A stretch of 64,000 nucleotides of DNA from a virus, in IMG/VR virus record IMGVR_UViG_3300017991_000003, positions 32,001 through 96,000 of that record; one strand, written 5' to 3'. Below the pieces are notes generated by a model. That model searched no databases. It worked only from the letters and a program-made list of their open reading frames with translations, and was not told the origin of the DNA. A program made the translations under genes and the position numbers. Shown piece after piece: positions 21,526-61,816 of this stretch (the first letter of the stretch is position 1; every line of letters starts with the position of its first letter).

Positions 21526-21953
21526 CAGGCTCCTTCGTCAGCCCCCTCAGTGAGCTGCTCGGTGTGGAACAGCGGGTCCTTGCCGACCGACTGTAGGACG
21601 CGGTTGAAGATGTCGCGGTTGGCCACGACGCAGCGGTGCTGGAACTCCTCGACGATGCCCTCCATGTTCTCGGCAATCTCTTCCCGGGAAGCAGGCACGT
21701 TCACGGTGACGTGAACCTCATGGCTCGAGTAGGCGCCGTAGACCTCGGAGATGCGGGCGTGGTGGCCGACCGAGATCGATCCGACATTAGCGGGGTTGGT
21801 CATGATGTGGCGGGTGTCGATGATGTGGGTGTTGCTATAGCGGAGGACGTACTTGGTGCGTCCTCGCGGGATGGCTCGAATCGTCACCTCGAGGGTGACC
21901 GGGCGGGCTGTGATCTCACAGCCCTGGATAGTCGATGACATGGCAGCGGGCAT
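21525..21953 (-). CDS. Hypothetical protein (start uncertain)
   Basis: GC3-rich codons checked by hand; the first 38 nt overlap the helicase gene. Confidence 0.5.
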   Translation of the reverse strand: MPAAMSSTIQGCEITARPVTLEVTIRAIPRGRTKYVLRYSNTHIIDTRHIMTNPANVGSISVGHHARISEVYGAYSSHEVHVTVNVPASREEIAENMEGIVEEFQHRCVVANRDIFNRVLQSVGKDPLFHTEQLTEGADEGA

Positions 21954-36486: not shown

Positions 36487-39027
36487 TCAGTTGCGCATAG
36501 CTAGCTCTTCTTCCCGCGTCATGACTCGGGAGGTGCTGGGCTGGGTGATCAGCGGACCACGATCGGGGATCAAGGTCTTGCACCACTCCTGCTCCTCCGG
36601 GAGCAGACGCGCACAGCTGGAGGCCAGCTCAACATCGCCGTTCTCGTCGGCTTCGACGAAGTCGGCCCAGTTCTCTGCGGTGAACAACCGATCCTCGCCC
36701 TTGATCCGAGCGAAGAAGGTGCCGACGGGCGGGACGTTGTCATCGCCCTCTTCAGCCCAGTTGTTGTAGCAGATAGAGGTGTCGGCCAGGATCGGGACAG
36801 ACAGCCCGAACCAGTCGTACTCCATGACGTACTTGATGAGCATGGCCGCCTCTTTGGCGAAGCGGATCGGGCACGCATAGATCAGCTCGTCGTGGACCTG
36901 CCCGATCACCCGTAGGCCTGGGTATCGAGGCAGCACGTACTTGCGGATGATGAACATGTTGGCCTTGATCATGTCCGCCGAGGAGCCTTGCACCTTGGCG
37001 TTCAGGATCTTGCCGGGCATGACGTCGTTGTCGTTGAAGTGACGGTGACGTCCGCTGATCATCAGGAAGCTGCGTTGACCTTTCTGCCACTTACCCTGTA
37101 GCGCCTGCATGTAAGCAGGGATGCCGCTGTAGGTCTGGAAGAAGCCATCACGCCAGAGCGCTGCCTTTTCGATGTCGTACTCGCCCTTAGGCGTGAGTAG
37201 CGGCACCATACGGGCGAACTTCTCCGGCCCCATCCCGTAGTTGAAGCCGAAGTTGACGTTCTTGGCCGGCTTCCGCGGGATCCCGAGGCTCTGCGAGGTC
37301 TTGGCGTGAACATCGCCCGTGTGAAACACGAGCCCGTGGCTCGTGATCGTCTCGTGGTAGACGTTGCGTAGGTTGAAGTCGCCAGTGAAGTGAGAGATCA
37401 CTCGAAGCTCGACCTGGCTCTGGTCGCTGACGATCAGGCAGTAGCCCTCAGGTGCCCACTCATCAGGGGGCGGGCACACGAAGACTTCACGTAGCGCCGG
37501 GCCCAGGCCCTGGATCCTCTCGTCGAAGTGCGCGGGCTTTTTGCGGGAAGGGATGTTCTGGAGGTTGGGTCCAGAACTGCTGAACCGGCCAGTATCCGTA
37601 CCGAAGGAGTTGAAGCGACCGTGCACTTGACCATCCCCGGAGTCTTCAACCTTCTCGCCCATGCTTTCGACATAGGTGCTGAGGAGCTTCGAGACAGTTC
37701 GGAAGTTCAGGATGGCCTGCCCGATCGGATGATCGAGCATGCTCAGCGTGGTGGTGTCCGTGCTGATGTACTGCTCCCGGATCTCGTCCGGGATACGGTC
37801 CGGGTTGCGTAGGTCGACTACGCAGTCTTCCCAGAAGATCCGACCGTTGGCAGGGTTGCGCTTCATGTACCCCTGCTCGAGGCACCACTTGACGCCGTCC
37901 TTGGTCAGCTTCGGTAGCGGGATACGCTCCCCGTTGATCCAAGCCCACCGGAACGTGGGAGGCGTCAGGTACAGCGTCTGGAACAGGAGGGTGCAGAGCT
38001 GCTTCGGGCTGTTGGGGTTGAACTCCTGCTTGGCCAGCTCGTAGCAGTGGGAGCGGAACTCCTCGACTAGCGGACGCATGATATTGCCGCGCTTCTTGAG
38101 CTCCTCGAGATCGATCGTCATACCGGCGATCTCCATGCCGATGGTCTGCCACCGGACATCCATCTCGATCTCCATCCACGTACCTGCGCCATCCTTGCGG
38201 ACCTCGGCGAGGAGCTTACGCAGGAGGGGGAACAGGTAGCGGGCGTCGTCGCGGGCGTAGTCTTTGAGGAGCTTCAGAGCCTGCGCGCGCAGGTTGGCGA
38301 TCTTGGTCTCCGCTCGGGCTGTGTGGGCTCGGACGTAGTCCTCGTACTTCCACCGCTCGAGCTCATCAAAGAGTTCATCCCGCCAGGCCAAGAGAGCGCC
38401 ATTCTCCTCTTTCGACAGGTCCTTGCCGGTGATGCCGCGCTCGTCCAACACTTTCTTGCGGATGGCGTTCCAGGACATGGCAGGGTCGTCGAAGGACGGG
38501 TACGGCCGCCACCAGGTCCCAGGCTGGGACCACTTCTCCAGGTTGTCCTTGTGCATGGCCAGTCGCGCGTTAGTCAGATCGATCTCACGCAGGAGCGGAT
38601 TGTCGAGCGCCGCCTCCTCGTAGGTTGTCATCTGCTTACGCAGCCATTTCTGGACCAGCAGCTTGAGGCCCTTGGGACGCTCCTCGTCAACTGCCCAGGC
38701 GTAGCCGAGCGTGTCGAGGCAGCGGGCCTGCCACTCCTCGTACAGCACCATGCCGGCTCGATGGCCGACGATCACGTCGTAGGGGGCGTTGTGCGCCATC
38801 CCGAACAGCTTCGGGTTCGTAGCTAGGCGCTTGAATGTCTCGCACAGCTCAGGCGTGATCTCGAAAGCCCCGGCGCGGTTAGGTGTCGCCAAAGCTAGGA
38901 CGGTGGGTCGCGCCGTCCACGCGTTCTTCGCGTCCTCAGAGCGTCCGGTCTCCGACTCCGTCTCGAAGTCGAACGCAAAGTAGCCCGTCTCGAGGGCGTC
39001 GGCTTCAATCAGATGTAGAGGATCCAT
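36487..39027 (-). CDS. Family A DNA polymerase with 3-prime to 5-prime exonuclease domain
   Basis: Exo I FAFDFETE; motif A SDQSQVELRV; motif B RKPAKNVNFGFNYG; motif C QVHDELI. Confidence 0.92.
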   Translation of the reverse strand: MDPLHLIEADALETGYFAFDFETESETGRSEDAKNAWTARPTVLALATPNRAGAFEITPELCETFKRLATNPKLFGMAHNAPYDVIVGHRAGMVLYEEWQARCLDTLGYAWAVDEERPKGLKLLVQKWLRKQMTTYEEAALDNPLLREIDLTNARLAMHKDNLEKWSQPGTWWRPYPSFDDPAMSWNAIRKKVLDERGITGKDLSKEENGALLAWRDELFDELERWKYEDYVRAHTARAETKIANLRAQALKLLKDYARDDARYLFPLLRKLLAEVRKDGAGTWMEIEMDVRWQTIGMEIAGMTIDLEELKKRGNIMRPLVEEFRSHCYELAKQEFNPNSPKQLCTLLFQTLYLTPPTFRWAWINGERIPLPKLTKDGVKWCLEQGYMKRNPANGRIFWEDCVVDLRNPDRIPDEIREQYISTDTTTLSMLDHPIGQAILNFRTVSKLLSTYVESMGEKVEDSGDGQVHGRFNSFGTDTGRFSSSGPNLQNIPSRKKPAHFDERIQGLGPALREVFVCPPPDEWAPEGYCLIVSDQSQVELRVISHFTGDFNLRNVYHETITSHGLVFHTGDVHAKTSQSLGIPRKPAKNVNFGFNYGMGPEKFARMVPLLTPKGEYDIEKAALWRDGFFQTYSGIPAYMQALQGKWQKGQRSFLMISGRHRHFNDNDVMPGKILNAKVQGSSADMIKANMFIIRKYVLPRYPGLRVIGQVHDELIYACPIRFAKEAAMLIKYVMEYDWFGLSVPILADTSICYNNWAEEGDDNVPPVGTFFARIKGEDRLFTAENWADFVEADENGDVELASSCARLLPEEQEWCKTLIPDRGPLITQPSTSRVMTREEELAMRN

Positions 39028-39177
39028 TCAACTCCGGTGGTTAGTTGTAAGCGGGGCTCGGCCACCCGCACCCTCCAGCCCGTGCTAGAGCCAGGACCGA
39101 CACGTCCAAAGCACGTGGAGATTCGCCGAGGCGCAAAGAAGCCCGGACCCCGCGCGGGGATCCGAGCTCCTCAGTCA

Positions 39178-40539
39178 TCAGCCCGAGAAGGGGTCGCCGG
39201 CCAAGGGGTCCTGCCCCTCAGCCGGCTCCTTACCGTCACCGGCCTGCTGAGCCCCCGCATCCGGGAGATCCTGGAGCGCGCCCAGGGCCGATCCCGACGT
39301 CTGAACCGGCTGAGTCGCCGGAGCTTGCGTCACTTCGGGCTGGGCCGGCGGGGCAAGGGGCCCTCCAAGAGGAGGAGCGGCGGGGGCAGCGGGCGCGGGG
39401 GCTGCGGCAGGTGCGGAGCCGGGAAAGGGCAGGCCGCCACCCTGCGGGGCCGGCTGCGGCGCCGGGGCCTGCTGCGGGAAGAGGCCGCTACCCTGCGCCG
39501 GCTGCTGGAACAGCGGGGTCGGAGCAGGCTGAGGCTGAGCACCGGATTGCTGCATCGGCTGCTGCATCGGCTGCTGCATCGGCTGCTGCATCGGCTGAGG
39601 CGCCGCCCCGGCCGGCGGCATTTGACCATAACCCGCGCCGCCGGGGACCGTGCCGGTTGCTTGGGAGCCAGGACAGATCTGATCCATGACCCCCGCGTTG
39701 TAGGAGAGGCCTCGAACACCCGGGTGCTCGTCGCAGATCTGCCGGTGCAGACGCAGGATTTCACGAGCCTCCGCCTCGGAGTAGGCCGGGTAGATCTTGT
39801 TGAAGTCCACCGAGCCGGCCAGAGCCGCGAAGTCGCCCTCAGGGTTGGGGGCCATGTAGGCCGCTAGGGCTGTGACTAGCTCCTCGGTCGTGCCGAACGT
39901 CTGTCCCTGGTTCTCGCCCAAGTAGTACATCGGCATCCAGTTACCCAGCTTCGGGGCCTGCTTCTCGTGGGTGCGGTTCACGTTCCACACCGAGCCAAGG
40001 ATCGAGCGGTTCTTCATCTGACTGAAGGCCAGGAACTGATCGAGCATGGACTGGTTAGAGAACATGACCCAGCGGATGCTCCACGGGATCGTCTGCTGCT
40101 GCTTGTTGACCCAAGGGGTCATGTTGAGGACGGCCGCGGCCATTCCCAGCATCGGTTTCGGCTTACCGAGAGCGGGTCCGAACAGGTCCGGCTGACCGTT
40201 CTCGACCGGGTTACCCGCGTTATCGACGCCGGTGATGTGGGCAGCACGAACGATCTCCCACGTGGGGAAGCTAGCGTTCGGCGTGTTTTTCCACCCAGTA
40301 GCCACCCGGTAGTGCGGGATGAGGGTGACGTCGGAAAGGAAGGCGACCTGGATCTGCTGGCCGCGGGGCGCGAAGAACTCGCGATGAGGCTTGCGCTCGT
40401 CCCAGGTCTTGGACCACGGTCCGCTGCCGGCACCGATGGAGACGTTCTCGTTCTGGGCGATGGCCTGGTACTGCTGAAGGCCGCCCTGGGCTTGACCGCC
40501 TTGAGCGAAGGGGGTCGCGGGGTTCGTGGGGTCTGTCAT
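39178..40539 (-). CDS. Hypothetical protein with Pro/Gln/Ala-rich low-complexity C-terminal half and acidic tip (candidate SSB)
   Basis: 453 aa between primase and polymerase genes; disordered linker and acidic ...DPLAGDPFSG terminus reminiscent of SSB tails; assignment weak. Confidence 0.55.
   Translation of the reverse strand: MTDPTNPATPFAQGGQAQGGLQQYQAIAQNENVSIGAGSGPWSKTWDERKPHREFFAPRGQQIQVAFLSDVTLIPHYRVATGWKNTPNASFPTWEIVRAAHITGVDNAGNPVENGQPDLFGPALGKPKPMLGMAAAVLNMTPWVNKQQQTIPWSIRWVMFSNQSMLDQFLAFSQMKNRSILGSVWNVNRTHEKQAPKLGNWMPMYYLGENQGQTFGTTEELVTALAAYMAPNPEGDFAALAGSVDFNKIYPAYSEAEAREILRLHRQICDEHPGVRGLSYNAGVMDQICPGSQATGTVPGGAGYGQMPPAGAAPQPMQQPMQQPMQQPMQQSGAQPQPAPTPLFQQPAQGSGLFPQQAPAPQPAPQGGGLPFPGSAPAAAPAPAAPAAPPLGGPLAPPAQPEVTQAPATQPVQTSGSALGALQDLPDAGAQQAGDGKEPAEGQDPLAGDPFSG
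39547..39594. repeat. Four tandem copies of a 12-bp unit
   Basis: Plus strand TGCTGCATCGGC x4 read directly; encodes the QQPM repeats on the minus strand. Confidence 0.9.
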
Positions 40540-40554
40540 GATTCGTTGCGTCTG

Positions 40555-41574
40555 CTAGAGGAGGGAGGAGTATCGATCTGAGAGGTCTTGTTGCGTCAGG
40601 TACTTCGGGTCCTGATCGAGGTGGTACAGCATGCTAGGCACGCCGTGCTTCGTCAATACTTTGTTGACATTTTTGGCGGCATTCTGACCCTCGACATCGG
40701 GGTCCAGGAGGATGCCCACCAGGGACGGTTCGGAGGCTCGAATCAGCTTGGCCTTCTCCGCTGAGAAGGCGAGCCCGTTGATACCCGCGGCACGAGCCCC
40801 AAGCTGGACCAGGTGCATCGCATCAAAGGGGCCTTCAACCAAGGACAGGGGCTTACCGGCCCCATAGGGCAGTAGATGCTCGCCGAACAGGTGACGGCCG
40901 CTCACGAAAGGCCAGATCGTCCAGTACTTGAGGCCGTTTCCTGCTAGGGGCCGAACCTGTGCTCCGACGCAGCGAACGATGCCGACGTCTGGAGACACCA
41001 GGATGGGGAATACGAGGCAGGGCGCCTTGGTCGTTTTCGGGTTGTCGTATCGGTCGGTCCCCATGCCGTCGTCGGTGTAACCGGCGGGGACGGTGGTGCA
41101 GTAGAACTGCTCGATGGCAAAATCGGGATCGACCCCCTTAGCGGCCAGCACATCCCGTCCGAGGGGGAGCATCGGCACACGTAGCAGGTCAGCTAGGAAC
41201 ACGGTGTAGTCCGTGTCCGGGGTCGTACGGGTCTGTCGAGTGACGCCGGCAGCGGAGAAGTCCAGGCTTTCTAGCGCCAACTCCCGCTCTCGGGCCTTCA
41301 TCTGGAGGGCCAATCCCGCATACTGACCACCACTGAGGCGGTTCAGCTCGAGGAGCGTATCCCCCAGTGATGACAGGTGTTTACACGCGTGGCACTTCAG
41401 GAGGGTCACTCCAGGACCCACCGTCGCGGTCATCGACGGCCTTCGATCAGATCCTTTCCCATGAGTCCACGGAGCCAGCAGGCAGGAAAACTTCACATGG
41501 CGGTCCCCCGCGGGTCGAAGCTCCCCCGCTTGGGGCAGCTGGGCGAGGACGGTTCGGAGCTCTACCTCTTGCAT
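40555..41574 (-). CDS. DnaG-like DNA primase (zinc-binding plus TOPRIM-like)
   Basis: CHC2-like CLLAPWTH...CHACKH; LVEGPFDAMHL and LLDPDVEG TOPRIM-like acidic motifs; start set at internal Met to avoid overlapping the divergent fibre gene. Confidence 0.65.
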   Translation of the reverse strand: MQEVELRTVLAQLPQAGELRPAGDRHVKFSCLLAPWTHGKGSDRRPSMTATVGPGVTLLKCHACKHLSSLGDTLLELNRLSGGQYAGLALQMKARERELALESLDFSAAGVTRQTRTTPDTDYTVFLADLLRVPMLPLGRDVLAAKGVDPDFAIEQFYCTTVPAGYTDDGMGTDRYDNPKTTKAPCLVFPILVSPDVGIVRCVGAQVRPLAGNGLKYWTIWPFVSGRHLFGEHLLPYGAGKPLSLVEGPFDAMHLVQLGARAAGINGLAFSAEKAKLIRASEPSLVGILLDPDVEGQNAAKNVNKVLTKHGVPSMLYHLDQDPKYLTQQDLSDRYSSLL

Positions 41575-41632
41575 CTTTTCGGGTTCTCGGGGTTGGACTT
41601 CATAAGCTAAGACAGGGGAGGACCCCACACAC

Positions 41633-44600
41633 ATGGCCGATAACGTCCAGCTCTACGACGCGCATCTAAACCTCTGGACCCTCAGGACATCCGAGGACAC
41701 AGAAATCCACACGCCGCACCACGTGTCGCGGCTGGCGGACGGGGAGGGGCGCTTCTACAGGCCCGGACGGCCGGTACCTGTGTCGATCTACGGGACGGAC
41801 GGGGTCGAGATCAACATCGAGGCCGGCTCGATCGCTGTCAGCACAGACCACAACGAGGACTCAGTAGCGGTCTTCGGGTCGTCGACCCCTGAGGGGCTGG
41901 AAAACTTCAGGTCGCTGGTGGTGGACCCCCAGGGGCACCTCCAGACCACAGTGGTCTCAGCGCCTGGGGTGGAGCCCGTCGGGGACTCGCCCGACGCGGG
42001 GCAGCTAGGTACGGTCATCCTAGGGGTCCAGGTAGGGGCAACGCCAGCTAGTCAGGTCACGGGGGACGGTCGGACAGCCCCTCTGATCATGGACGATCGG
42101 GGCCGGCTCTTCGTCTCTTTCGGCAACTCCGTCGCGGTTCTGCCCTTCACGCAAAAGGGTGACCTACTTACTTATGACGGATCTGACGAAGTTGTCCTGG
42201 GCCCGACGGTCGACGACGCGCTTCTGACACTGGACTCCAGTACCAGTACCGGCCTCAGGTGGGTGAGCCCGGTGACGAGCTCCCCCAGCCCCGTGCTCTT
42301 CCTACGCGAGGATCTAACATGGGCTCTGCCCTCAGCAGGGGCACCGGGCGGGGCTGCGGGCGGAGACTTGGGCGGGACCTATCCGAACCCGTCTGTGGTC
42401 GCTATCCAAGGGATTTCCACTTCTGCGGCTGCGCCAACGCCTGGGCAGACCTGGGTGTACACCGGCAGCGCTTGGAGTCCGGGAAGCCCGGCTACCGGAG
42501 CTGCTACGGACCACGGGACGCTCACAGGGCTCCTCGACGATGATCACACCCAGTACATCCTGGCTGATGGCTCTCGAGACTTCTCAGGCTCAATCGGCAT
42601 GGGTGGGAATGAGATCACGGATGTGGCCTCTCCTATCCTCGTATCCTGGGCAGCTAACAAGGGTTACGTTGATGATCAGATCACCGCGTCCGTCATCACG
42701 GACCACGGCGGGCTAGGCGGGCTCGGGGATGACGACCATACCCAGTACGTGTTGGTGGCTGGCACTCGTGCGTTCACGGGCGATCAGAGCCTAGGCGGTA
42801 ACAAGATCACGAGTCTGGGGTCCCCGACCACCGCAAGCGATGGAGCCAACAAAGGTTACGTCGACGCTAACGTGGTCACGGACCACGGCGCTTTGATCGG
42901 GCTGGGGGATGATGACCACACCCAGTACATCCTGACTGCGGGGACTCGAGCCTTCAGTGGTAACCAGAGCCTAGGCGGCAACCTGATCACAAGCCTAGGC
43001 TCGCCTACTACCGCAAGTGGTGGTGCTAACAAGGGTTACGTTGACGCGGCTATCACGTCGGCAGTGATCACGGATCACGGAGGGCTTGGCGGCCTGACGG
43101 ACGACGACCATACGCAGTACGTCCTGGTCGCAGGTACTCGAGCGTTCACAGGCAGCCAGAGCCTGGGCGGTAACCTGATCACGTCGCTAGGGTCTCCTAC
43201 TGTTGTAAGTGACGCAGCTAACAAAGGTTACGTTGATGCGCAGATCCCGACGAGCCTACCCCCTAGCGGGGCTGCTAGTGGTGATCTAGGCGGCACGTAC
43301 CCCGGGCCTACTGTGGTGGCCATTCAAGGCACCGGAGTCAGTGCAAACGCTCCAAGTACTGGTGATGGCCTGGTTTACACCGGAGCGGCTTGGAGTCCGA
43401 CCGCGGTCTATCGACCTGGCGGGACGGATGTGGCTGTGGCAGACGGGGGCACCGGGGCGTCGGACGCGTCCACGGCGCGTAGCAATCTAGGCCTGACCAT
43501 CGGGCTCGACGTCCAAGCCCACTCCGCAGTTCTTGACGCTACAACGGCCAGTTACACAACCGCGGCCGAGGGTAAGCTCTCGGGCATCGAGACCAACGCT
43601 GATGTCACGGACACAGCCAACGTGACGGCCGCTGGCGCTGTCATGATCGGCACAACGGCCGCGGCCGGGGACCTGAGCGGTACCTACCCGAGCCCGACGG
43701 TCGTGGCCATTCAGGGGACTGGCGTCTCGAGCACTGCGCCGAGCTCTGGGCAGGCCCTGATCTACTCCGGCACTGTCTGGAGCCCCAGCACGCTCCCCAG
43801 CGGGGTGACGGACCACGGGGCCCTGACCGGACTCGGAGACGACGACCATACCCAGTACATCCTGGTTGGTGGCACTCGCGCCTTCACGGGCAACCAGTCG
43901 ATGGGCGGCAACCTGCTCACGTCGTTGGGGAGCCCGGTGGCGGTAACAGACGCAGCTAACAAGGGTTACGTCAATGCCTCGATCACCGCGGCCGTCGTCA
44001 CGGACCACGGGGCCCTTGACGGGCTGGCCGATGACGACCACACCCAGTACCACAACGACGCTCGGGCGCTGACGTGGTTGGGGACGCGCGACACAGATGA
44101 CCTGGACCCGAGCGCCACCCGTCTCTACATGAGCCCGGGTGAGCGCACCAAGCTCGCCGGGATCGAAGCGCTTGCCGATGTGACCGATGCGGCCAACGTG
44201 GCCGCGGCCGGCGCTGTCATGGTCGGTGACGCTGCGGGCGGTGATCTTAGCGGTACCTACGCAAACCCGTCCGTGGTCGCGATCCAGGGTACGGGTTGCT
44301 CTTCAGCAACGCCGACCGCCGGCCAGACCTGGGTCTACTCCGGGTCCCAGTGGAGTCCTGGCTCACCCGCTGTTGGTGGCGCGTCAGATCACGGAACCCT
44401 GACCGGGCTGGGCGACGACGACCACACTCAGTACATTCTTGTTGACGGTACACGGGCCTTCACAGGCGCAGTTAGTCTCGGTGGGAGCCAGATCAACAGC
44501 CTGGCTTCGCCCACGCTCCCAGCAGATGCAGCCAACAAGGGCTACGTCGACGACCAGATCCCGACGAGTCTACCCCCTAGCGGGGCAGCGTCTGGCGACC

Positions 44601-45409
44601 TTGGTGGGACCTACCCGGGCCCAGACGTGGTGGCTATCCAGGGGACCGCGGTCAACTCGGCGACGCCGACGACGGGTGAGGCCCTGCTCTACTCGGGAAC
44701 GCAGTGGAGCCCTGGGCCGATCAACTTCCTCGAGCTCAACGACGTCGATCCCACAGGCCTGACCAACCTCGACCTGTTCTACTACAGCTCGGCGTCGGGG
44801 ACTATCGTCCGGTCTAGCGGCCTCACGACCTACGCGTTCTACACGCACAGCGGATCGCACATCCACGGACAGTACGACGCAATCGACGGGGATCAGCTAT
44901 CGATCACCCAGCCGGGCGTCAACTACTCCCCGACGACCGACGCGACATACGGCACCAACACGGCGCACCTCGCTGCCCATCTGCGGGGTATCGGTCTGGT
45001 CCTGGAGGATGTCAGTCCCGCGGTCACCAAGCTCGCCGGGATCGAGGCGGGCGCTGAAGCCAACGACGTTCAGACCAAGAGCATCACGATCGAGGCGCCG
45101 ACCACGACGGAAGACATCTCGTTCTTCTACGCTCCGGTAGCGATGACGATCTCAGAGATGGTCACGGTCCTGGTGGGCTCTCCTACGCCGTCCCTAGCGT
45201 GGACGCTCCGGCACAGCACCGACAGGAGCGCTGTGGGCAACGAGGTCATCACCGGGGGATCCACGGCGAATAGTACGACGACCGGTAACGTGCTGACCTC
45301 CTTCAACGACGCAACGGTCCCAGCCAACTCCTTCCTGTGGGTTGAAACGGCGAGCCCCAGCACGAACGTGACGAGCTTCCAGCTCAGCGTTGAGTACACC
45401 GACGACTGA
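41633..45409 (+). CDS. Tail fibre / receptor-binding protein with internal repeats
   Basis: 1258 aa; seven copies of a unit containing TDHGxLxGLxDDDHTQY...GANKGYVD and five copies of a second unit DLxGTYPxPxVVAIQGT; AGGGGAGGA ribosome-binding site before ATG. Confidence 0.7.
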   Translation: MADNVQLYDAHLNLWTLRTSEDTEIHTPHHVSRLADGEGRFYRPGRPVPVSIYGTDGVEINIEAGSIAVSTDHNEDSVAVFGSSTPEGLENFRSLVVDPQGHLQTTVVSAPGVEPVGDSPDAGQLGTVILGVQVGATPASQVTGDGRTAPLIMDDRGRLFVSFGNSVAVLPFTQKGDLLTYDGSDEVVLGPTVDDALLTLDSSTSTGLRWVSPVTSSPSPVLFLREDLTWALPSAGAPGGAAGGDLGGTYPNPSVVAIQGISTSAAAPTPGQTWVYTGSAWSPGSPATGAATDHGTLTGLLDDDHTQYILADGSRDFSGSIGMGGNEITDVASPILVSWAANKGYVDDQITASVITDHGGLGGLGDDDHTQYVLVAGTRAFTGDQSLGGNKITSLGSPTTASDGANKGYVDANVVTDHGALIGLGDDDHTQYILTAGTRAFSGNQSLGGNLITSLGSPTTASGGANKGYVDAAITSAVITDHGGLGGLTDDDHTQYVLVAGTRAFTGSQSLGGNLITSLGSPTVVSDAANKGYVDAQIPTSLPPSGAASGDLGGTYPGPTVVAIQGTGVSANAPSTGDGLVYTGAAWSPTAVYRPGGTDVAVADGGTGASDASTARSNLGLTIGLDVQAHSAVLDATTASYTTAAEGKLSGIETNADVTDTANVTAAGAVMIGTTAAAGDLSGTYPSPTVVAIQGTGVSSTAPSSGQALIYSGTVWSPSTLPSGVTDHGALTGLGDDDHTQYILVGGTRAFTGNQSMGGNLLTSLGSPVAVTDAANKGYVNASITAAVVTDHGALDGLADDDHTQYHNDARALTWLGTRDTDDLDPSATRLYMSPGERTKLAGIEALADVTDAANVAAAGAVMVGDAAGGDLSGTYANPSVVAIQGTGCSSATPTAGQTWVYSGSQWSPGSPAVGGASDHGTLTGLGDDDHTQYILVDGTRAFTGAVSLGGSQINSLASPTLPADAANKGYVDDQIPTSLPPSGAASGDLGGTYPGPDVVAIQGTAVNSATPTTGEALLYSGTQWSPGPINFLELNDVDPTGLTNLDLFYYSSASGTIVRSSGLTTYAFYTHSGSHIHGQYDAIDGDQLSITQPGVNYSPTTDATYGTNTAHLAAHLRGIGLVLEDVSPAVTKLAGIEAGAEANDVQTKSITIEAPTTTEDISFFYAPVAMTISEMVTVLVGSPTPSLAWTLRHSTDRSAVGNEVITGGSTANSTTTGNVLTSFNDATVPANSFLWVETASPSTNVTSFQLSVEYTDD
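42507..43250 (+). repeat. Four tandem in-frame copies of a ~186-bp (62-aa) repeat in the fibre gene
   Basis: DDDHTQY codon strings recur at about 42537, 42731, 42911 and 43101. Confidence 0.85.
43801..44560 (+). repeat. Three further copies of the same 62-aa repeat interleaved with AIQGT-motif units
   Basis: DDDHTQY codon strings at about 43845, 44033 and 44413. Confidence 0.8.
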
Positions 45410-46545
45410 TGAGTGACTTCCTAGTCCAGCGCGATCAGACCGACGTGCCCACCGCCGGCACGACTGCGTCGATCACCGCCGTCTCGAGCCTGAACTCTGC
45501 ATTCGAGATGATGAGCAGCAACCGCCGGATGTCTGGCGGCCCCTCTGCGGTTACGACCAACCAGGAGGCTGATGACCTCTCCGCGGCCGGCGTGCTCACA
45601 GACACGAGCACGATCACCTACTCGCGAGTCTCCGGGTCGAGCTCGAACACGATGCGCTGCGCCATGGAGGTGGTGGAGTACACGGGCCCAGCGGGCGGCC
45701 CCAACGAGTTCATCGTGCGGGGGCGGTACACAGGTCTACTGACCGGCGGCACCAACTCAGTAAGTGTCACCGTGTCCGGTGTCTCTGACAAGGACAGGTG
45801 TATCCCGATCATCACCGGCATCTTGTGCGAGGACACAACGGACGGGGGTGCCCGGGCTACCGGTCTGGTCCTGCTCACAAACGCGACTACCGCAGTGGTC
45901 TATGCAGGCGGGTCCGCCTCTCGTGTGACTGTGCACTTCACGCTAGTTGAGTTCACTGGATCGGCGTGGACTGTCGGGCACGCTGCGGCTGGTCCTGTCT
46001 CGGCTGACTCGGGGTCCGCTACGATCGTCACGGGATCAAACGGCTCGAGCGGAACGACCGTGGATGTCGGGGACTGGGGTACCGCTTGCATCTTCGCGCA
46101 TCATGCGGGCGATCTGGGCTCGGACGCCAATCAGGCCATCGCAGATAACTGGCCCAACATCACACCCACCTCCGGGAGCACGACCTCAGTCGACTACACC
46201 TTCAACTCCCAGCACGACGGGGTCAACAACCTACACCTGGCTCACGTTCTCCAGCACGACGATATGGTCGTGCAGCGGATCACAGACACTGGCAGCCATA
46301 CCGGGGCACGGAACGTGTCGATCCCGTCCACGCTCTCGTCTATTAGCGAGGCTTTCGTGCGAGTGTGCCGAACCTCGAGCGGTGCGGGTACGGCCTACGG
46401 CCGTGGTTGGGTCAACGCCCGGCTGACTACGACCAGCAACGTAGAGCTCTGGGTCCACCGAAACGGCAACTCGATCGATACCCGCATCGAGGTTGTTGAC
46501 CTCTCTAGCATCTCCTCGGCTACCAGGAGGATCTTCGTCGTCTGA
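45409..46545 (+). CDS. Beta-rich tail fibre-associated protein
   Basis: ATG overlaps fibre stop (TGATG); Ser/Thr/Gly-rich 378-aa ORF. Confidence 0.6.
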   Translation: MSDFLVQRDQTDVPTAGTTASITAVSSLNSAFEMMSSNRRMSGGPSAVTTNQEADDLSAAGVLTDTSTITYSRVSGSSSNTMRCAMEVVEYTGPAGGPNEFIVRGRYTGLLTGGTNSVSVTVSGVSDKDRCIPIITGILCEDTTDGGARATGLVLLTNATTAVVYAGGSASRVTVHFTLVEFTGSAWTVGHAAAGPVSADSGSATIVTGSNGSSGTTVDVGDWGTACIFAHHAGDLGSDANQAIADNWPNITPTSGSTTSVDYTFNSQHDGVNNLHLAHVLQHDDMVVQRITDTGSHTGARNVSIPSTLSSISEAFVRVCRTSSGAGTAYGRGWVNARLTTTSNVELWVHRNGNSIDTRIEVVDLSSISSATRRIFVV

Positions 46546-47354
46546 TGACTGACAACATCCGAATCCAGACGGTCGACGGAGAGCGGTGGATCCGCACCTC
46601 CGAGATCGGCGGGGTCCACCACCCACACCACATCGCGCGCCTGTCCGACGGCTTGGGCGTGGTGTACAGTCCGGGCTATCCCGTCCCGGTCTCGATCTTT
46701 TCCGCAGATGGGTCGGCAACCATTACGCTTAGCGGCGGCGACCTAGCTGTTGGTCTGGACCATACCGAGGACTCGATCACGATCTGGGCGCACACCAACG
46801 CGGCGGGCTCCGGCAGCCCTGTCGCTGTCGTGGTCGACACCGATGGCCACCTCCAGGTCGACGTGCTCTCGAGCGATTGGCCGCAGCAACCTTTCGACGA
46901 ACCGGTACCAGCTGAGTACTCCGGCATGGTTATGCTCGGGGTCCAGACGGGTAGCCCTGAAGCACAAGCCACGGATGGCGCCTTCGCGCCCTTCCAGTTT
47001 GACAAGCAGGGTCGCCTGATCGTATCGATCGACCAGTCCTACCAAGGCGGGGCCTTGAAGCTGGTATCGGCCACCAAGACGAGCCCGTTCGTCGTGTGGG
47101 AGGATGATGTGCCCGCCTCTCTCCACTATGTCGACGTCTATCGTTGTTCTGGAACGTACACAATTGGCCTCCCTTCTCCCGCTGATCCCGCGGCAGCGGA
47201 TGGCCGAGTAGTCTGGATCAAGAACATAGGCACAGGCATGCTTACACTGAGTCCTGAAGGCGGGACCCTTGAGCTCAAAGCGGGGCTACTGCTAGCTAGC
47301 CGATCCTCTATCACCTTGCGCTCCAACACTGTAGACGACTGGGAGATTCTCTAA
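46545..47354 (+). CDS. Second fibre-like protein sharing the N-terminal domain of the 41633 fibre
   Basis: Residues 1-130 align by eye with the fibre N-terminus (shared HHxxRLxDG, YxPGxPVPVSI, DPxGHLQ blocks); ATG overlaps upstream stop. Confidence 0.6.
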   Translation: MTDNIRIQTVDGERWIRTSEIGGVHHPHHIARLSDGLGVVYSPGYPVPVSIFSADGSATITLSGGDLAVGLDHTEDSITIWAHTNAAGSGSPVAVVVDTDGHLQVDVLSSDWPQQPFDEPVPAEYSGMVMLGVQTGSPEAQATDGAFAPFQFDKQGRLIVSIDQSYQGGALKLVSATKTSPFVVWEDDVPASLHYVDVYRCSGTYTIGLPSPADPAAADGRVVWIKNIGTGMLTLSPEGGTLELKAGLLLASRSSITLRSNTVDDWEIL

Positions 47355-48127
47355 TGACGTTCCTACCGCTCGACACAGACTATTACGCCGCCGTCGAGGC
47401 AGGCGAGGTTCCAGGTGCGACCCTGCTCAACAAGTTTGGCAGGGCGGAGATCGGGACATCGTTGACGCCTATCAGTCGGGAGCTGGTCTACCAGACCCCT
47501 ACAACGGCCACAGTGCTGGAGTTTGTATCGGATGATGCCAACGATACGAGCGCAGGGACTGGGGCTCGGGAGATCTCGATCATTGGCCTGAACTCCTCGT
47601 GGGAGGAGGTGATGCAGACCGTCACAACAAACGGGACAACAGCGGTAGCCCTCTCGACCCCGCTAATCAGGATGTATCGGTGGTACGTGACGAAGTCCGG
47701 AACCTACGCCACGTCATCAACGGGATCACATGCCGGGACGCTGACTATCCAAGAATCTGGTGGCGGCACGGTGTGGTCGTCAATCGGCGTAACACCCTTC
47801 CCCACCGGGCAGTCCCAAATCGGGATCACGACCATCCCCATCGGTAAAAGAGGCGTCCTGCTGTCTACTCACGTGTTCGTTGACACGTCTAAGAGTGTTG
47901 ATCTGTACCTGTTTCAGCGGCCTAACGCGGACGTCGTTACAGCGCCCTACACAGGAGCGATGCGCGTTGTTCGAGAGTTCCAGGGTGTCACAGGCCCGAT
48001 TACCTACGTTCCCCGCGGAGGGGCCGGCGCATTCGTCGGGCCTTGTGATATCGGGTTTATGGGCCAGGTAACAGTTGGCACGGCCGCTGTGTCCTGCGAC
48101 TTCGAGCTGCTTCTGCTAGATCTTTAG
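47354..48127 (+). CDS. Beta-rich tail fibre-associated protein
   Basis: 257-aa ORF; ATG overlaps upstream stop (TAATG). Confidence 0.6.
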   Translation: MTFLPLDTDYYAAVEAGEVPGATLLNKFGRAEIGTSLTPISRELVYQTPTTATVLEFVSDDANDTSAGTGAREISIIGLNSSWEEVMQTVTTNGTTAVALSTPLIRMYRWYVTKSGTYATSSTGSHAGTLTIQESGGGTVWSSIGVTPFPTGQSQIGITTIPIGKRGVLLSTHVFVDTSKSVDLYLFQRPNADVVTAPYTGAMRVVREFQGVTGPITYVPRGGAGAFVGPCDIGFMGQVTVGTAAVSCDFELLLLDL

Positions 48128-48208: not shown

Positions 48209-49174
48209 CTAGATCTGGTACGCGTCCAGCGGCGTGCCGCGGGTCATCCCCAGCCTGAAGCCAGCCGCCTTCGCGTGACCGCCACCGGAGATGGCGATGC
48301 CGCGGTCGAACAAGTCGCGCGCGACGGCCGAGACGTCGATGTCGTTGTCTGCGTGAGTGCGGAGACTGACGATAAGCTGATTGGTATCTCGATCAATGCG
48401 CCAGTTGCCCACAATCGCATCGCCCATCTTGTTGTAGAGAAGCTCAGCAGCCTCAGAGATGTAACGATCCTCAGGAGCCAACCACATCTGGTACCCGCCG
48501 ATCTCGTACAGCGAGACGTTGTAGTTGCTCTCGGCTGCTTGCTTGTAGATGTGCCGGCGGATGCCTCGACCCTCGGCCACAAGCCGGTCCCGGCCATCCG
48601 GGCAATCAAGACTTTGGTTGAGCATGTCCCAGTTCTCCCAGTGCCGGGGATAGCTCTGGATAGCAGCGGCAATCTCCTCAGTGTCCGGAAGCTCCTTCAG
48701 CCATAGATCACGATCACGGATGTACTCGATGAGCGGGGTCGAGTGCTCGAAGAGCAGACGATTTGTCAAAGACGCTCCGCACTCCTCCATGTCGAACACG
48801 GCGAAGTCCCGGCATCCGCTGAGCGCATCCTTGGCGGTCTTGTGGTGATCGATGACCACCAGGTTCTTCATGCGCTCGAGCCAAGCGAGCAGGACATCAC
48901 GGCCCCAAGAGAAGTCCACGATGATGATCTGCCAACCATCCGGGACCTCTGGCACGGTGCCGTCGTAGTTGACTCCGCTGAAAGTCAGCTGGGTCTTACC
49001 GTCCCACAACGTATCGAACCCCTTGCAGAGATCCGTGAAGCCGTGGGCCATGAACCACTTGCGAACAAGCCACGCAGCCGTGAAGCCATCGGAGCAGGGG
49101 TCGTGATAGAACACGACTGTCGGGACGTCCAGGAGGATGCGGACGCCAGGCTCACTTCGGGGCTTGATAGACAT
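48209..49174 (-). CDS. DHH-family phosphoesterase (NrnA/RecJ-like)
   Basis: Motif I YHDPCSDG, DHH motif VVIDHHK, DHHA1 GGGHAKAAGF. Confidence 0.65.
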   Translation of the reverse strand: MSIKPRSEPGVRILLDVPTVVFYHDPCSDGFTAAWLVRKWFMAHGFTDLCKGFDTLWDGKTQLTFSGVNYDGTVPEVPDGWQIIIVDFSWGRDVLLAWLERMKNLVVIDHHKTAKDALSGCRDFAVFDMEECGASLTNRLLFEHSTPLIEYIRDRDLWLKELPDTEEIAAAIQSYPRHWENWDMLNQSLDCPDGRDRLVAEGRGIRRHIYKQAAESNYNVSLYEIGGYQMWLAPEDRYISEAAELLYNKMGDAIVGNWRIDRDTNQLIVSLRTHADNDIDVSAVARDLFDRGIAISGGGHAKAAGFRLGMTRGTPLDAYQI

Positions 49175-49562
49175 GAGGAAGTTTCTCGAGGATGAGGTAG
49201 ATGTCGCCAGCGTCCCAGGCAGCGGGATCGGTGAGGGCCTTGAGTACCTGAGTAGACGCCTTCAAATCATCCGGCGCGTAGGGGTCGCCGGTCTTGGCGT
49301 TCGACCACATTTTGGGCGTCAGTCGAAGCGGGCCGGCCCCAACCGGGGAGGACGCAATGTCGCCGCGGTACAGGAGCACGCTGATGACGTAAGCGATCTC
49401 TTGATCATCGAGGTGCTGATCCTCGACAACCTCGGAGGGCATCGACTTCGTCAGCTTGGGACTCACGTAGGTACTGAACAGGTCCCAGGACACGAAGCCG
49501 AGGAACCCGACAAGCAGGAGCGCTACTACGGTAGCGGTAACCCTAGCGATGAAGGTTTTCAT
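49152..49562 (-). CDS. Secreted or membrane-anchored protein (N-terminal signal/TM)
   Basis: Start at MKTFIARVTATVVALLLVGFLGFV; adjacent to the lysozyme-like gene. Confidence 0.5.
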   Translation of the reverse strand: MKTFIARVTATVVALLLVGFLGFVSWDLFSTYVSPKLTKSMPSEVVEDQHLDDQEIAYVISVLLYRGDIASSPVGAGPLRLTPKMWSNAKTGDPYAPDDLKASTQVLKALTDPAAWDAGDIYLILEKLPHVYQAPK

Positions 49563-50106
49563 GGTAAGCGCGGACACGGGTCCAGAAGGGGATGGTGGAG
49601 ACCCGGGTCATGCCCATGGGTCCTCCGTTATGAATTCGAGCGATGGTCTCCAAGTCTCGAGCTGCCCAAGCCTCGGGGACCCAGCGAAGCATGTAGGCTT
49701 TGACGACCTGAGCTCCCATGGGGTAGATGCGGCAGAGCTCGTAGTCATCCGGGATACTTGGATCCTGCTCGCGAGCATCCTGCCAGTAGGCGCGGCTGAT
49801 CTGAAAGGGGCCGATTGATGTTCCGCCGCCCCCATCCGGCGGGTCGTACTGGCCGTCGGTCTCGGCAAGCCAGATCAGCTCGAGGACCTGCTCTTCGGTG
49901 AGTACAGGCTCTGCCGGAGCCGGGACACGGTCGGCCGCTTCAACGCCTGCGGCAGCACCATCCTTGAAGCCTTGGTCGTAGGCCAGGCCGCTGTCCTTGC
50001 GGTAGTTGTACGCGGTGATTGACGCACTCAGCACCACCAGGATGGCGGTGACGAGAAACCACGCGACCCAATCGCGGGTGTGGTTGGTGAATGGTTGAGT
50101 AGTCAT
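49543..50106 (-). CDS. Lysozyme-like protein (destabilase-like signature) with N-terminal TM anchor
   Basis: Start set at internal Met; TM helix WVAWFLVTAILVVLSASITAY; SIGPFQISRAYWQDA resembles the GxFQI...YW.D lysozyme core. Confidence 0.45.
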   Translation of the reverse strand: MTTQPFTNHTRDWVAWFLVTAILVVLSASITAYNYRKDSGLAYDQGFKDGAAAGVEAADRVPAPAEPVLTEEQVLELIWLAETDGQYDPPDGGGGTSIGPFQISRAYWQDAREQDPSIPDDYELCRIYPMGAQVVKAYMLRWVPEAWAARDLETIARIHNGGPMGMTRVSTIPFWTRVRAYHENLHR

Positions 50107-50198
50107 GCTGGTTCTCTGGGTGGTTGTTACAAGACGTTTGTAGCCAAGGGACTTATGACCGATAGGAGACCCGAGCTGAGCACCCGGATCCCCTGTGG

Positions 50199-51593
50199 CT
50201 AGTAGGCAGCCTGACCACCGCTGCTCGCCATGTCCTGGACAGGGCCGAGCTGCGCGAACCGCATGTCGTAGAGATCCCATTGAACACGATAGGGTTGGTC
50301 GACCGCACCGTCTCGGACCTTGCCGAGCTTCATGTCGATGACGCGGGCGTTGTTACCGGCATCCTTCGGCGGTACCAGGAAGACGAGGTTGTTGGAGTCG
50401 TGCGAGATGCTCTGGCTGAAAGCCACAGCATCAGCGTTCGACCGGGCCAGCGTGCCTTCATTTCGGCGCAGCTGCGTGGCCAGCATGTAGTGACGGTTGG
50501 ACATCAGCGTATGCAGACGCATCTGCCGCATGTTGCCCTCCACCTTCTGCCAGCGCTCCTTACCAGGGCCCTCCATGTAGTAGAAGCCGTCGATCAAGAC
50601 CAGGTCCGCGCCAAACTCCTCAGCCTGTGCGGCAACCTGATCAGGAGTCGTAGCCTGGTTAGGGCCCACGATGCGCAGGTTCTCACCAACGCGAGCGTGC
50701 GGCCCGTCTGCTTTCAGGCTACGCAATGCCTCGAAGTAGGCCGCCTTCTCCACGTCACTTAGCTTCTGCTTCATGAGGCGGTTGAAGCTAGTGCTCGAGA
50801 GCACCGCGGCTTGGCGTCGAGCCACATCGATGGGTGCCATCTCCAGACTGACGATCAAGACCCGAGCGCGGGCGGCGTCCTTCTGCTCCTGCGTCCACGC
50901 CGGGATGTCGGGTGGGCGGTGGAAGATGTAGGGATCTCCCAGGAGGCCGGCGGCACTGTTGAGCACGATGAACCAAGTCTTGCCGAGGCCGGTAGGAGCC
51001 ACACAGCTGGTGATCTGCGCAGGGTGCCAGCCCCCAAGCTGTTCCTGAATGAACAGGAACGGACAAGGGATGCCGAGCTTCACGCCGGCCAGCCGATCGT
51101 TGTAGTCCTGCTCGAGATCCTCAGCGTACTCTCGGAAGTCCTTGATCTCCGTCTTGTGTGCCGAGTACCTAGCTTGCAACGTATGAGCGTACAAGGACAT
51201 CGCGTCCTTGATGTCGAACGGGTCGGTGCGCTCGGTCAGCTGCTTGTGAAGATCCTGAAGGCTCTCTAGCACATCTACACGCACCGCCTCCTTAGCGACT
51301 TCGTCGTAGAGAACCGAGATGCTCGCTTCCGGGATCTCAGTACCAGCCAAGATCGTGGGAAGCTCAGGCCAGGCGCGCTGCGCCGTGTCAGGCGTAGGAA
51401 GCTCGTTGTACTGTGCTCGGTACCCGACGACCCACTCGATGATCTCCGTCATCGGCTCTTGAAAGAACCCGGGGTTGAGTCCGTTCTTGGCGACGTGGTG
51501 GTCGAAGGCGGCTAGGTTCCGGTCACTCAGGATCTTGGTCAGGAAGAGAGCCTCGACCCTGTCTCGAGAGTTGACGTTGGTGAACCCGGTCAC
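50199..51593 (-). CDS. DnaB-like replicative DNA helicase
   Basis: Walker A APTGLGKT, SLEM motif VLIVSLEM, LVLIDGFYYM and LATQLRRNEG segments. Confidence 0.75.
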   Translation of the reverse strand: MTGFTNVNSRDRVEALFLTKILSDRNLAAFDHHVAKNGLNPGFFQEPMTEIIEWVVGYRAQYNELPTPDTAQRAWPELPTILAGTEIPEASISVLYDEVAKEAVRVDVLESLQDLHKQLTERTDPFDIKDAMSLYAHTLQARYSAHKTEIKDFREYAEDLEQDYNDRLAGVKLGIPCPFLFIQEQLGGWHPAQITSCVAPTGLGKTWFIVLNSAAGLLGDPYIFHRPPDIPAWTQEQKDAARARVLIVSLEMAPIDVARRQAAVLSSTSFNRLMKQKLSDVEKAAYFEALRSLKADGPHARVGENLRIVGPNQATTPDQVAAQAEEFGADLVLIDGFYYMEGPGKERWQKVEGNMRQMRLHTLMSNRHYMLATQLRRNEGTLARSNADAVAFSQSISHDSNNLVFLVPPKDAGNNARVIDMKLGKVRDGAVDQPYRVQWDLYDMRFAQLGPVQDMASSGGQAAY

Positions 51594-59491: not shown

Positions 59492-59495
59492 GAGG

Positions 59496-61394: not shown

Positions 61395-61816
61395 GTGGTG
61401 ATCAGGGGTGGGTGGAATCGACGTAGGACGGTCAAGACCGCCTGGGTGTCTTCGTTGATGTCTTGCTCGGCTAGTAGGTGATCGAGCCGGCGCATCCAAT
61501 CACGTAGGGTCGTGAGCTGCTCGGGGCCCATGCTCGCCGGAGGGTCGACGACAGGACGTCGGTCGCTCTCGTCTCGGATCAAGTTGAAGCGGATGTTGTT
61601 GATCCTTCCACCGTCTAGCGCAACTGGATAGGTGCGTTGGAAGATCTGACCAAGAGCCTCGATCATCTCTCGAGTAAGACCCGTCCCCTCAAGATCGAGA
61701 AGGTGCGGTCGGTTCTCGAGGATCCGAGATAGAAGCTCCTCGCGTCTCCGGATAATGGCCTGGTGATCATTGTGTCGATCACGCGCGCCTTGCACGGTGT
61801 CCAGAATGGTGGTCAT
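61391..61816 (-). CDS. Hypothetical protein (operon member)
   Basis: 141 aa; ATGA overlaps at both ends (61813-61816 and 61391-61394). Confidence 0.55.
   Translation of the reverse strand: MTTILDTVQGARDRHNDHQAIIRRREELLSRILENRPHLLDLEGTGLTREMIEALGQIFQRTYPVALDGGRINNIRFNLIRDESDRRPVVDPPASMGPEQLTTLRDWMRRLDHLLAEQDINEDTQAVLTVLRRFHPPLITT

Follow-up and report, generated by a model that had tools for sequence, protein, structure and literature searches.

Gp2.5, the single-stranded DNA (ssDNA)-binding protein (SSB) of phage T7, recruits the polymerase and the primase-helicase through an acidic tail with an aromatic residue. In bacteria, the E. coli SSB ends in ...DFDDDIPF, and the terminal carboxylate is part of the SSB C-terminal (SSB-Ct) binding mode. 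The gp32 protein of phage T4 carries a zinc site, which we take to consist of His64, Cys77, Cys87 and Cys90, and which is important for the stability and cooperativity of the protein. Residues ~248-269 of gp32 bind partners such as Dda, and residues ~273-301 form an acidic end that is thought to occupy the DNA site when DNA is absent (PMC11551737). Here we compare with these systems a gene found in positions 32,001 to 96,000 of the IMG/VR virus record IMGVR_UViG_3300017991_000003, a stretch of 64,000 nucleotides that we call the window. The gene is an open reading frame (ORF) at 39178..40539 on the minus strand, with an ATG start, and encodes a protein of 453 aa. The evidence points to an SSB that resembles gp32 of phage T4 in type and not the bacterial SSBs, and we consider it probable that this is the replicative SSB of the phage, a highly diverged gp32 relative from a zinc-less branch with a long Pro/Gln-rich linker. 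Such a protein would be an expected component of a phage replisome in an unusual form, and no new kind of system.

The GC content of the gene is 0.81 at third codon positions (GC3) versus 0.52 at second positions (GC2), which is the pattern of a real gene. It starts 15 nt downstream of the stop codon of a primase gene and ends 150 nt upstream of a gene for a family A DNA polymerase (PolA). Its parts and these two neighbours are listed here, with model confidence given as the predicted local distance difference test (pLDDT) score:

39178..40539, minus strand: whole gene, candidate replicative SSB, divergent and gp32-like (ORF, coding-type GC3, homologues, kept gene order)
40420..40539, minus strand: N-terminal flexible segment, residues 1-40 (pLDDT 58-76)
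39655..40419, minus strand: folded core, residues ~41-295, proposed ssDNA-binding domain (AlphaFold2 model, BFVD fold matches, hhalign chain)
39301..39654, minus strand: P/A/Q/G-rich low-complexity linker, residues ~296-413, predicted disordered (composition, pLDDT <55 from residue 290)
39547..39597, minus strand: 12-bp tandem repeat, CAGCCGATGCAG x4 (+3 nt), encoding (PMQQ)x4, codons 316-331 of the gene
39259..39285, minus strand: conserved tail motif 1, L419-GALQDLP-D427 (aligned across the family)
39181..39210, minus strand: acidic C-terminal tip DPLAGDPFSG, D444-G453 (7 D+E and 1 K+R in the last 30 residues)
40555..41634, minus strand: Toprim DNA primase, 359 aa (Pfam Toprim_2 4e-8, phrog_47 1e-17)
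36487..39027, minus strand: PolA with 3'-5' exonuclease domain, 846 aa (Pfam DNA_pol_A 1e-63, phrog_17 7e-99)

An earlier reading of this DNA, made from the letters alone (the sequence-only reading), had placed a candidate SSB with an acidic DPLAGDPFSG tip between primase and polymerase genes, and the ORF calls, the Pfam and PHROG matches of the neighbours and the composition of the tail confirm that description. The same reading took the C-terminal half to be low-complexity and the N-terminal ~330 aa to be the fold domain. The Pro/Gln/Ala-rich composition holds (P makes up 23% of residues 300-453, A 19%, Q 18% and G 14%, and their net charge is -7), but the low-complexity part is the C-terminal third, and about 295 aa are folded, judging by the drop in pLDDT from residue 290. 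The protein ends in ...EGQDPLAGDPFSG (longer stretch, ...LGALQDLPDAGAQQAGDGKEPAEGQDPLAGDPFSG). Near the other end, the N-terminal segment holds the family motif GGL(x)2[FY], here G19-Y24, with GGL in the family consensus; this segment is possibly the counterpart of the N-terminal cooperativity peptide of gp32.

When residues 1-305 were run by phmmer exhaustively against 1.84 billion cluster representatives, 33 proteins came up at E <= 1e-3, and no more than three of these reached E <= 1e-30. Most members of this family are 307-340 aa long, a core of ~270 aa followed by a tail of 40-60 aa. The window protein forms a sub-clade with P0001 (49% identical) and P0002, in which the tails measure 161-205 aa, and linker length across the family runs from 27 to 205 aa. 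Gene order was read in the contigs of four relatives (25-183 kb). The succession Toprim primase, target homologue, PolA, UvrD helicase and ResIII helicase is kept in P0001, and also down to 19-25% identity, in P0012, P0033 and P0026; a RecA-like gene is the next after ResIII in the window and in the P0026 contig. Several other members of the P0002 cluster end at 225-275 aa, and these may be assemblies that break at a repeat-rich stretch.

The full-length window protein had no match in Pfam, PHROG, PDB-sequence or cultured-phage tblastn searches: Pfam returned nothing at E <= 1 for it or for any of 32 family members, tblastn with it and with P0008 against 50,697 phage records found nothing, and neither did megablast with the 10 kb around the gene or PDB sequence and profile searches. 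In a word-index protein search the low-complexity tail of the full-length query swamped the candidates; the N-terminal domain retrieved P0001 only, and a family profile gave two matches only. Ten clusters that we looked up came from metagenome or read-archive assemblies, one of them also in NCBI, and carried no informative names. The function-unassigned phrog_17226 was matched by 14 of the 32 family members (best E 8e-9), and the window protein had no match to it at E <= 0.1.

The connection to gp32 runs through cultured phages. Searched by tblastn, the family consensus matched Rhizobium phage RHph_TM16 (2e-6) and several Vibrio siphophages, and with the family hidden Markov model (HMM) RHph_TM16 reached 61.8 bits and Vibrio phage J26 reached 30.8. 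The RHph_TM16 protein matched 55 phage records by tblastn, including Rhodobacter RcZahn gp57 (2e-50; GenBank note 'T4 gp32-like DNA binding domain'), RcDurkin gp74 (2e-6; GenBank note 'T4 gp32-like ssDNA binding protein'), Pseudomonas SM1_042 (5e-8), which Foldseek also ranked first, Stenotrophomonas DLP_5 and Vibrio SIO-2. The homologue follows an annotated primase in six of seven cultured-phage records (RHph_TM16, J26, SM1, RcDurkin, RcZahn and DLP_5), with one small ORF in between in SM1; SIO-2 has the same layout, its flanking genes being annotated hypothetical. The setting is a module of DnaB, PolA, helicase, RecA and resolvase genes.

Profile comparison by hhalign of the window family with nine of these cultured-phage proteins gave Prob 99.2% and E 1.5e-19 over 212 columns, and by this measure the homology between the window family and the proteins encoded beside the primase in cultured phages is secure. 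When the cultured-phage group was compared with a gp32 alignment (26 sequences, built from IMG/VR), the result was Prob 60.7% and P 8e-5. The group pooled with zinc-motif metagenomic members gave Prob 71% and P 3.7e-5 over 208 columns, and in this alignment the zinc ligands of gp32 are matched by His, the first Cys and CPxC. The pooled score of 42.6 lies about 12 standard deviations above that of 60 block-shuffled gp32 alignments (14.1 +/- 2.4, maximum 19.9), and reversed alignments gave P 0.24-0.94. On these profile comparisons the primase-adjacent proteins are probably, although not conclusively, distant gp32 homologues.

Several of the cultured-phage genes are deposited as 'hypothetical protein', namely those of RHph_TM16 (L123, 6821-7759), SM1 and PaMx31-like phages (L127, 5893-7107), DLP_5 (L130, 1498-2271) and SIO-2-like phages (L131, 1366-2307). 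These could be re-annotated as gp32-like DNA-binding proteins.

The zinc site is distributed unevenly among these proteins. A His...Cys...CysxxCys motif is present in six distant metagenomic members (P0022, P0025, P0026, P0030, P0031 and P0032), where it matches the order and position of the presumed gp32 ligands and falls on that motif by hhalign. The residues lie between the strands 'V-x-F-L-[ST]-D' and 'V-A-x-I-L-D', which resemble 'VIRFLP' and 'ANILVV' of gp32. All nine collected cultured-phage sequences have H...C...C-P-[LIV]-C, with CPxC as in the 'CPVC' of gp32, and cultured-phage relatives have F[LM]K[KR]G at the N-terminal site, resembling the FKRKST of gp32. Several intermediate members retain one vestigial Cys. 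The family would thereby offer a natural series for the study of gp32-type SSBs, from zinc-bearing through vestigial one-Cys to zinc-free forms, with linkers of 27 to 205 residues.

An AlphaFold2 model of residues 1-305, computed from a 32-sequence family alignment, has a pLDDT of 88.9 and a predicted template modelling score (pTM) of 0.79, with blocks above 90 from residue 41 to 290 and a fall to about 50 from residue 290. It consists of the flexible N-terminal segment, a beta-rich core (strands 62-67, 72-85, 90-98, 130-139, 154-160, 183-188 and 200-206, and a small hairpin at 102-113) and a helical subdomain (218-288). A second model, of the zinc-motif member P0026, has a pLDDT of 83, and its equivalent tail is below 55. 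Against BFVD the window model gave 29 matches at E <= 1e-3. The best was the uncharacterised Pseudomonas phage SM1 protein SM1_042 (2e-11), and others were an 'SsDNA binding domain protein' of Bacillus phage phiNIT1, an Ackermannviridae entry named 'Single-stranded DNA-binding protein' and two T5-like D11 proteins. Fold prediction had been proposed in the sequence-only reading as a check for an oligonucleotide/oligosaccharide-binding (OB) fold, and the model is confident, but Foldseek matched no solved OB-fold structure significantly (best E 0.02-0.05). For this reason we infer the OB fold of the core from its connection to gp32.

The acidic tail is a property of the whole family. In nearly every full-length member the last 30 residues contain 4-14 Asp/Glu, and in most of them few Lys/Arg. 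An aromatic or hydrophobic tip is found in 25 of 31 acidic tails (DPF, NPF, DDF, DVPF, DLPF, DPW and DDVLG types), and 11 of 31 members have [DEN]PF within the last 20 residues; in most members PF is followed by 1-9 further residues. A second tail motif, GLxxLxD[IVL]P, lies 15-30 residues upstream of the tip, its counterpart in the window protein being L419-D427, and a loose L..L.D pattern occurs in 15 of 31 tails. At the level of sequence, this two-part layout parallels the C-terminal region of gp32. We propose that the acidic tip serves as a protein-recruitment peptide, a self-inhibitory peptide, or both. A canonical SSB-Ct binding mode is not implied, because Phe is not the C-terminal residue (DPFSG).

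The family shares with T4 gp32 (PF08804; 1GPC) co-linear core motifs, a place in a replication module and a three-part layout, in which a core of ~250 aa comes after a short N-terminal peptide and before a disordered, acidic C-terminal region whose end is hydrophobic (...DLDDLLNDL in gp32; ...DLSELDDVLG, ...SDLDDIL and ...DPF in the family). The window protein itself has, as far as its residues tell, the disordered acidic C-terminal domain, but it differs from gp32 in its extra helical subdomain (218-288) and in its tail, which is about three times longer and P/Q/A/G-rich, whereas that of gp32 is Ser/Asp-rich. The cultured siphophage proteins (RcDurkin gp74, RcZahn gp57, RHph_TM16 EVB27_023, SM1_042, DLP05_057 and those of SIO-2 and J26), most of them still annotated 'hypothetical protein', share the homologous core and the position after the primase. 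They differ in that the H/C/CPxC zinc motif is kept in all of them, along with an N-terminal extension rich in Lys, in that their downstream neighbour is a helicase and not PolA, and in that their tails are short or otherwise composed (Arg/Glu/Ser-rich in SM1, with a non-acidic end in TM16).

The D11 protein of phage T5 also has features in common. It is annotated as an SSB in RefSeq and phrog_1607, and matches phrog_1192, as does T4 gp32. T5-like D11 proteins are structural matches of the AlphaFold2 model at E 4e-4 and E 6e-4 (prob about 1), and D11 has no zinc motif, an acidic C-terminus (...EAASDLDD) and a 'YPxP..EE' motif after the beta core that is shared with the family. An hhalign comparison gave a co-linear alignment that was not significant (P 0.002-0.024). 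D11 differs in its length of 257 aa, its short tail and its place beside SbcCD-like genes and not beside a primase; a literature search on T5 D11 found nothing.

Like the bacterial SSBs (PF00436), the window protein pairs a DNA-binding domain, here a predicted one, with a Gly/Gln/Pro-rich disordered linker and an acidic Pro-Phe tip, and its linker composition (G/Q/P/A) is nearer to that of the E. coli SSB linker than to that of the gp32 tail. It has, however, no PF00436 match, a core of about 295 aa versus about 115 aa, and the end DPLAGDPFSG in place of D-D-D-[IL]-P-F with a terminal Phe. With T7 gp2.5 (1JE5) it shares a similar genomic neighbourhood (primase and PolA), but it has no gp2.5 match in Pfam, PHROG, PDB-sequence, Foldseek PDB or BFVD searches, and the Phe is terminal in gp2.5. 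A bacterial-type SSB and a T7 gp2.5-type SSB were both rejected on these grounds, the lack of matches and a Phe that is not C-terminal. The candidate SSB of the sequence-only reading is thus supported by gene order, the homology chain, the BFVD matches, the tails and the lack of a second recognisable SSB among the called ORFs of the window, although its type appears to be that of gp32 and not the bacterial one to which the tail had been likened.

Several observations weigh against this assignment. The protein is tied to gp32 only transitively and with moderate strength (Prob about 60-70%), because the window family alone has no significant direct gp32 match: hhalign against T4 gp32 was not significant with the single sequence or with the alignment, and the family gave P 0.07 and a score of 19.9, equal to the best shuffle control. 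The intermediate cultured-phage proteins have no PF08804 match by hmmscan either, while T4 gp32 itself scores 226 bits on that HMM, and the 'gp32-like' GenBank notes are themselves computational. At the His/Cys/Cys/Cys columns the window protein has Tyr77, Ala99, Asp118 and Gly121 and hence no zinc site; its residues 1-40 contain no Lys or Arg, and the basic FKRKST-type motif of gp32 is absent. The core is near-neutral, with a net charge of about -2.

Structure searches add to this list. Foldseek against the PDB found nothing significant for the window model (best E 0.05), its weak matches including OB-fold proteins such as MCM N-domains and bacterial SSBs. The P0026 model likewise matched MCM N-domains, PriB and several SSBs, none of them below E 0.02. 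Over the two models the OB domains of bacterial SSBs came at E 0.09-0.4, which is not significant. Neither model had a match at E <= 1e-3, and 1GPC was not among the 50 PDB matches shown. The window protein cannot be filed as a member of PF08804, because the HMM match, the zinc site and the basic N-terminal motif are lacking and the Foldseek searches yielded no fold match to 1GPC. Finally, the window covers 64 kb of a 91.6-kb contig, and a second SSB could lie outside it.

If the gene product is a gp32-type SSB, its folded core (~41-295) would bind the ssDNA that the DnaB-type helicase opens up at the fork, and the short conserved N-terminal peptide may touch a neighbouring molecule, making binding cooperative. 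The disordered Pro/Gln/Ala/Gly-rich linker of ~155 residues would hold out the acidic tip (LGALQDLPD ... DPLAGDPFSG). Replisome and repair partners encoded nearby, namely the primase, PolA, the UvrD-type and ResIII helicases and the RecA-like protein, could be recruited by the tip, which probably folds back onto the DNA-binding surface when DNA is absent. This would assign a probable function to a conserved, unannotated core replication gene in a clade of large (80-190 kb) uncultured phages, and the same function may extend to the 'hypothetical proteins' encoded beside the primase in many cultured phages of Vibrio, Pseudomonas, Stenotrophomonas, Rhizobium and Rhodobacter. The full replication and recombination module occupies two stretches of the minus strand, ~11.5-41.6 kb and 48-64 kb, and structural genes diverge from 41633 on. 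Other genes on the minus strand of the window are:

50199-51593, minus strand: DnaB-like helicase
25025-26971, minus strand: UvrD-like helicase
21916-23379, minus strand: ResIII/DEAD helicase
19915-21525, minus strand: RecA-like (RecA/Rad51-like) protein, 536 aa, unusually long
14681-15208, minus strand: RuvC
48209-49174, minus strand: DHH/DHHA1 (RecJ-like) protein
12771-13619, minus strand: phage-encoded sigma-70-type factor with regions 2, 3 and 4
49543-50280, minus strand: destabilase-type lysozyme

The lost zinc site, the lost basic N-terminal motif and the near-neutral core would also suit a replisome adaptor or loader, that is, a gp32-derived fold that no longer coats ssDNA but connects the primase with the polymerase and helicase, or else loads the DnaB-type helicase, the linker and tip acting as a tether. 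The invariant placement between primase and polymerase or helicase fits this role, and Pfam scans of the called ORFs recognised no helicase loader in the window. Zinc-bearing and zinc-less members nevertheless belong to a single family and share its core motifs and tails, and the window yielded no second SSB candidate: a Pfam scan of its called ORFs, some of them concatenated and with the plus-strand structural-block ORFs 6957-10214 and 41633-45409 omitted, revealed no PF00436, PF08804 or other recognisable SSB domain. Since SSBs are classical hub proteins with such a tail logic, an SSB is the simpler reading, and we regard an adaptor or loader as rather improbable.

We give a smaller chance still to a recombination protein, a single-strand annealing protein or mediator that would work with the RecA-like, RuvC and RecJ-like proteins and not as the SSB of the fork. 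The module is rich in recombination genes (RecA-like, RuvC, DHH/DHHA1), and T7 gp2.5 and gp32 themselves promote annealing or mediate recombination. Pfam and PHROGs, however, show no similarity to Redbeta/RecT, Erf, Rad52-like, Sak3 or Sak4 proteins, the gene adjoins the primase and polymerase genes and not the RecA-like gene, and the structural neighbours that are named in BFVD are annotated SSB.

A DNA-binding regulator of late transcription, whose tail would contact RNA polymerase or the phage sigma factor, has precedents in N4 SSB, which doubles as a transcription activator through its C-terminus, and in T5 D5. The phage encodes its own sigma-70-type factor, and the gene lies close to the divergent switch to structural genes at 41.6 kb. 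Specific evidence is nonetheless absent, the conserved gene order is with replication genes, and such a role would add to ssDNA binding and not replace it; we think it very unlikely.

Within the linker, Tandem Repeats Finder reported a repeat at 39548-39597 with period 12, 4.2 copies, 100% matches and a score of 100. The perfect four-copy 12-bp repeat of the sequence-only reading is thereby confirmed with its span 39547-39594, the 'QQPM x4' named there being (PMQQ)x4 in another phase. By our estimate, the chance of 36 more bases exactly matching a 12-mer in 64 kb is about 1e-17. The four 12-mers are identical, synonymous sites included, which suggests a recent expansion. This expansion would have arisen within the linker by replication slippage, and would shift linker length in four-residue steps while leaving both functional ends untouched.

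The repeat is not shared by the four homologues compared. The homologous gene of P0001 has no matching tandem repeat and three other homologues have no tandem repeats, while unrelated peptide repeats occur in the linkers of P0002 (poly-Q and GQAQGFG) and P0019 (APPAAPAFG x4). Three P0002 variants (P0002, P0036 and P0038) are 100% identical except for having 7, 8 or 9 Gln. This poly-Q run opens the linker and follows immediately on 'GAP', a position equivalent to that of the window repeat. Because these variants differ in Gln number alone, they support the view that the part of the linker around the repeat is slippage-prone and tolerant of length changes. The earlier description of the repeat as a slippage hotspot receives indirect support from the 7/8/9-Gln series, but copy-number variants of the window repeat itself were not found: the gene index lacks the exact protein, an IMG/VR scan gave only what is evidently the source contig, and a metagenome scan with the flanks and a 30-60 nt gap gave no match.

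A broader proposal, which we put forward tentatively and think unlikely, is that the clade of the window protein, P0001 and P0002 combines a gp32-superfamily SSB lacking structural zinc with a convergent tail design of the bacterial SSB kind and a repeat-tuned linker, with possible ties to condensates or the host SSB network. If this were true, a Gly/Gln/Pro/Ala-rich linker of 160-205 residues with a D-P-F-type tip could form condensates or tap the host SSB-interaction network, and slippage at codon repeats would tune linker length in nature, through (PMQQ)n here and through poly-Q of 7-9 in the sister lineage.

That the 12-bp x4 repeat is instead a DNA-level element, such as replication-origin iterons, and not a by-product of linker evolution is the least credible of the alternatives: lambda gene O does hold origin iterons inside a replication gene, and here too four perfect head-to-tail copies lie in the linker-coding part of a replication-module gene, but the surroundings lack an AT-rich stretch (of all 2-kb bins in the window, 38-40 kb has the highest GC content, 0.658), homologues have not kept the repeat and their linkers carry unrelated amino-acid repeats, the length polymorphism of the P0002 lineage is a simple change in a codon run, and the cumulative GC-skew minimum lies near 12-18 kb and not at the repeat.

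The window has a GC content of 60-66% and is phage DNA. Two plus-strand ORFs that overlap the gene, 39037-39867 and 39967-40581, were rejected as GC-rich shadow ORFs by their GC3/GC2 pattern. An exact-pattern scan found the same sequence in the IMG/VR contig IMGVR_UViG_3300018080_003942 (91.6 kb). The two copies are identical across the gene, and the sole difference in their 11.9-kb overlap is one G in the G-run at 41541-41543, in the N-terminal region of the primase, where the window has GGG and the other copy GG (L122, 6357-6358). The GGG version gives a primase ORF of 359 aa that starts at ATG, and the GG version a shorter one of 313 aa that starts at GTG. The difference is a homopolymer error or a polymorphism.

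Between the primase stop and the ATG of the gene (40540-40554, minus strand) there is no purine run of the Shine-Dalgarno type (CAGACGCAACGAATC-ATG). This 15-nt gap without a Shine-Dalgarno sequence hints that translation of the two genes is coupled, or that the host seldom relies on such sequences. The spacer on the other side, before PolA, contains the following feature:

39136..39172, minus strand: GC-rich hairpin of 16 bp, starting 6 nt past the stop codon of the gene

The hairpin has no clear U-tract and was not called as a terminator in a consensus scan, and the 166-nt spacer as a whole folds no better than shuffled sequences (z = -0.59, not significant). The hairpin itself points weakly to a possible transcript-end or stabiliser element. 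The phage of P0001 has a 193-nt spacer at the corresponding place.

The destabilase-type lysozyme gene stands among replication genes, a location that recurs in the contigs of P0001 and P0026. Further along the minus strand lies a reverse transcriptase gene (62652-63755; RVT_1, E 4e-14), and the adjoining ORFs, all on the same strand, encode a 280-aa product with no Pfam match (61813-62655), a 667-aa JAB/MPN-domain protein (59496-61499) and a ThiF/E1-like protein (58757-59698; E 6.5e-13). With its reverse transcriptase, JAB and ThiF genes, this part of the replication region may represent a diversity-generating retroelement, or else a module for counter-defence or of the ubiquitin-like kind. 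The ORFs in 45409-48127 have no Pfam matches; they come after a plus-strand gene (41633-45409) that is divergent from the primase and encodes a 1258-aa protein with at least 7 copies of a ~50-70-aa unit, 'DDDHTQY[IV]L..G.R.F[TS]G...GGN.I[TN]SL.SPT...ANKGYVD'. Its product looks like a tail-fibre protein.

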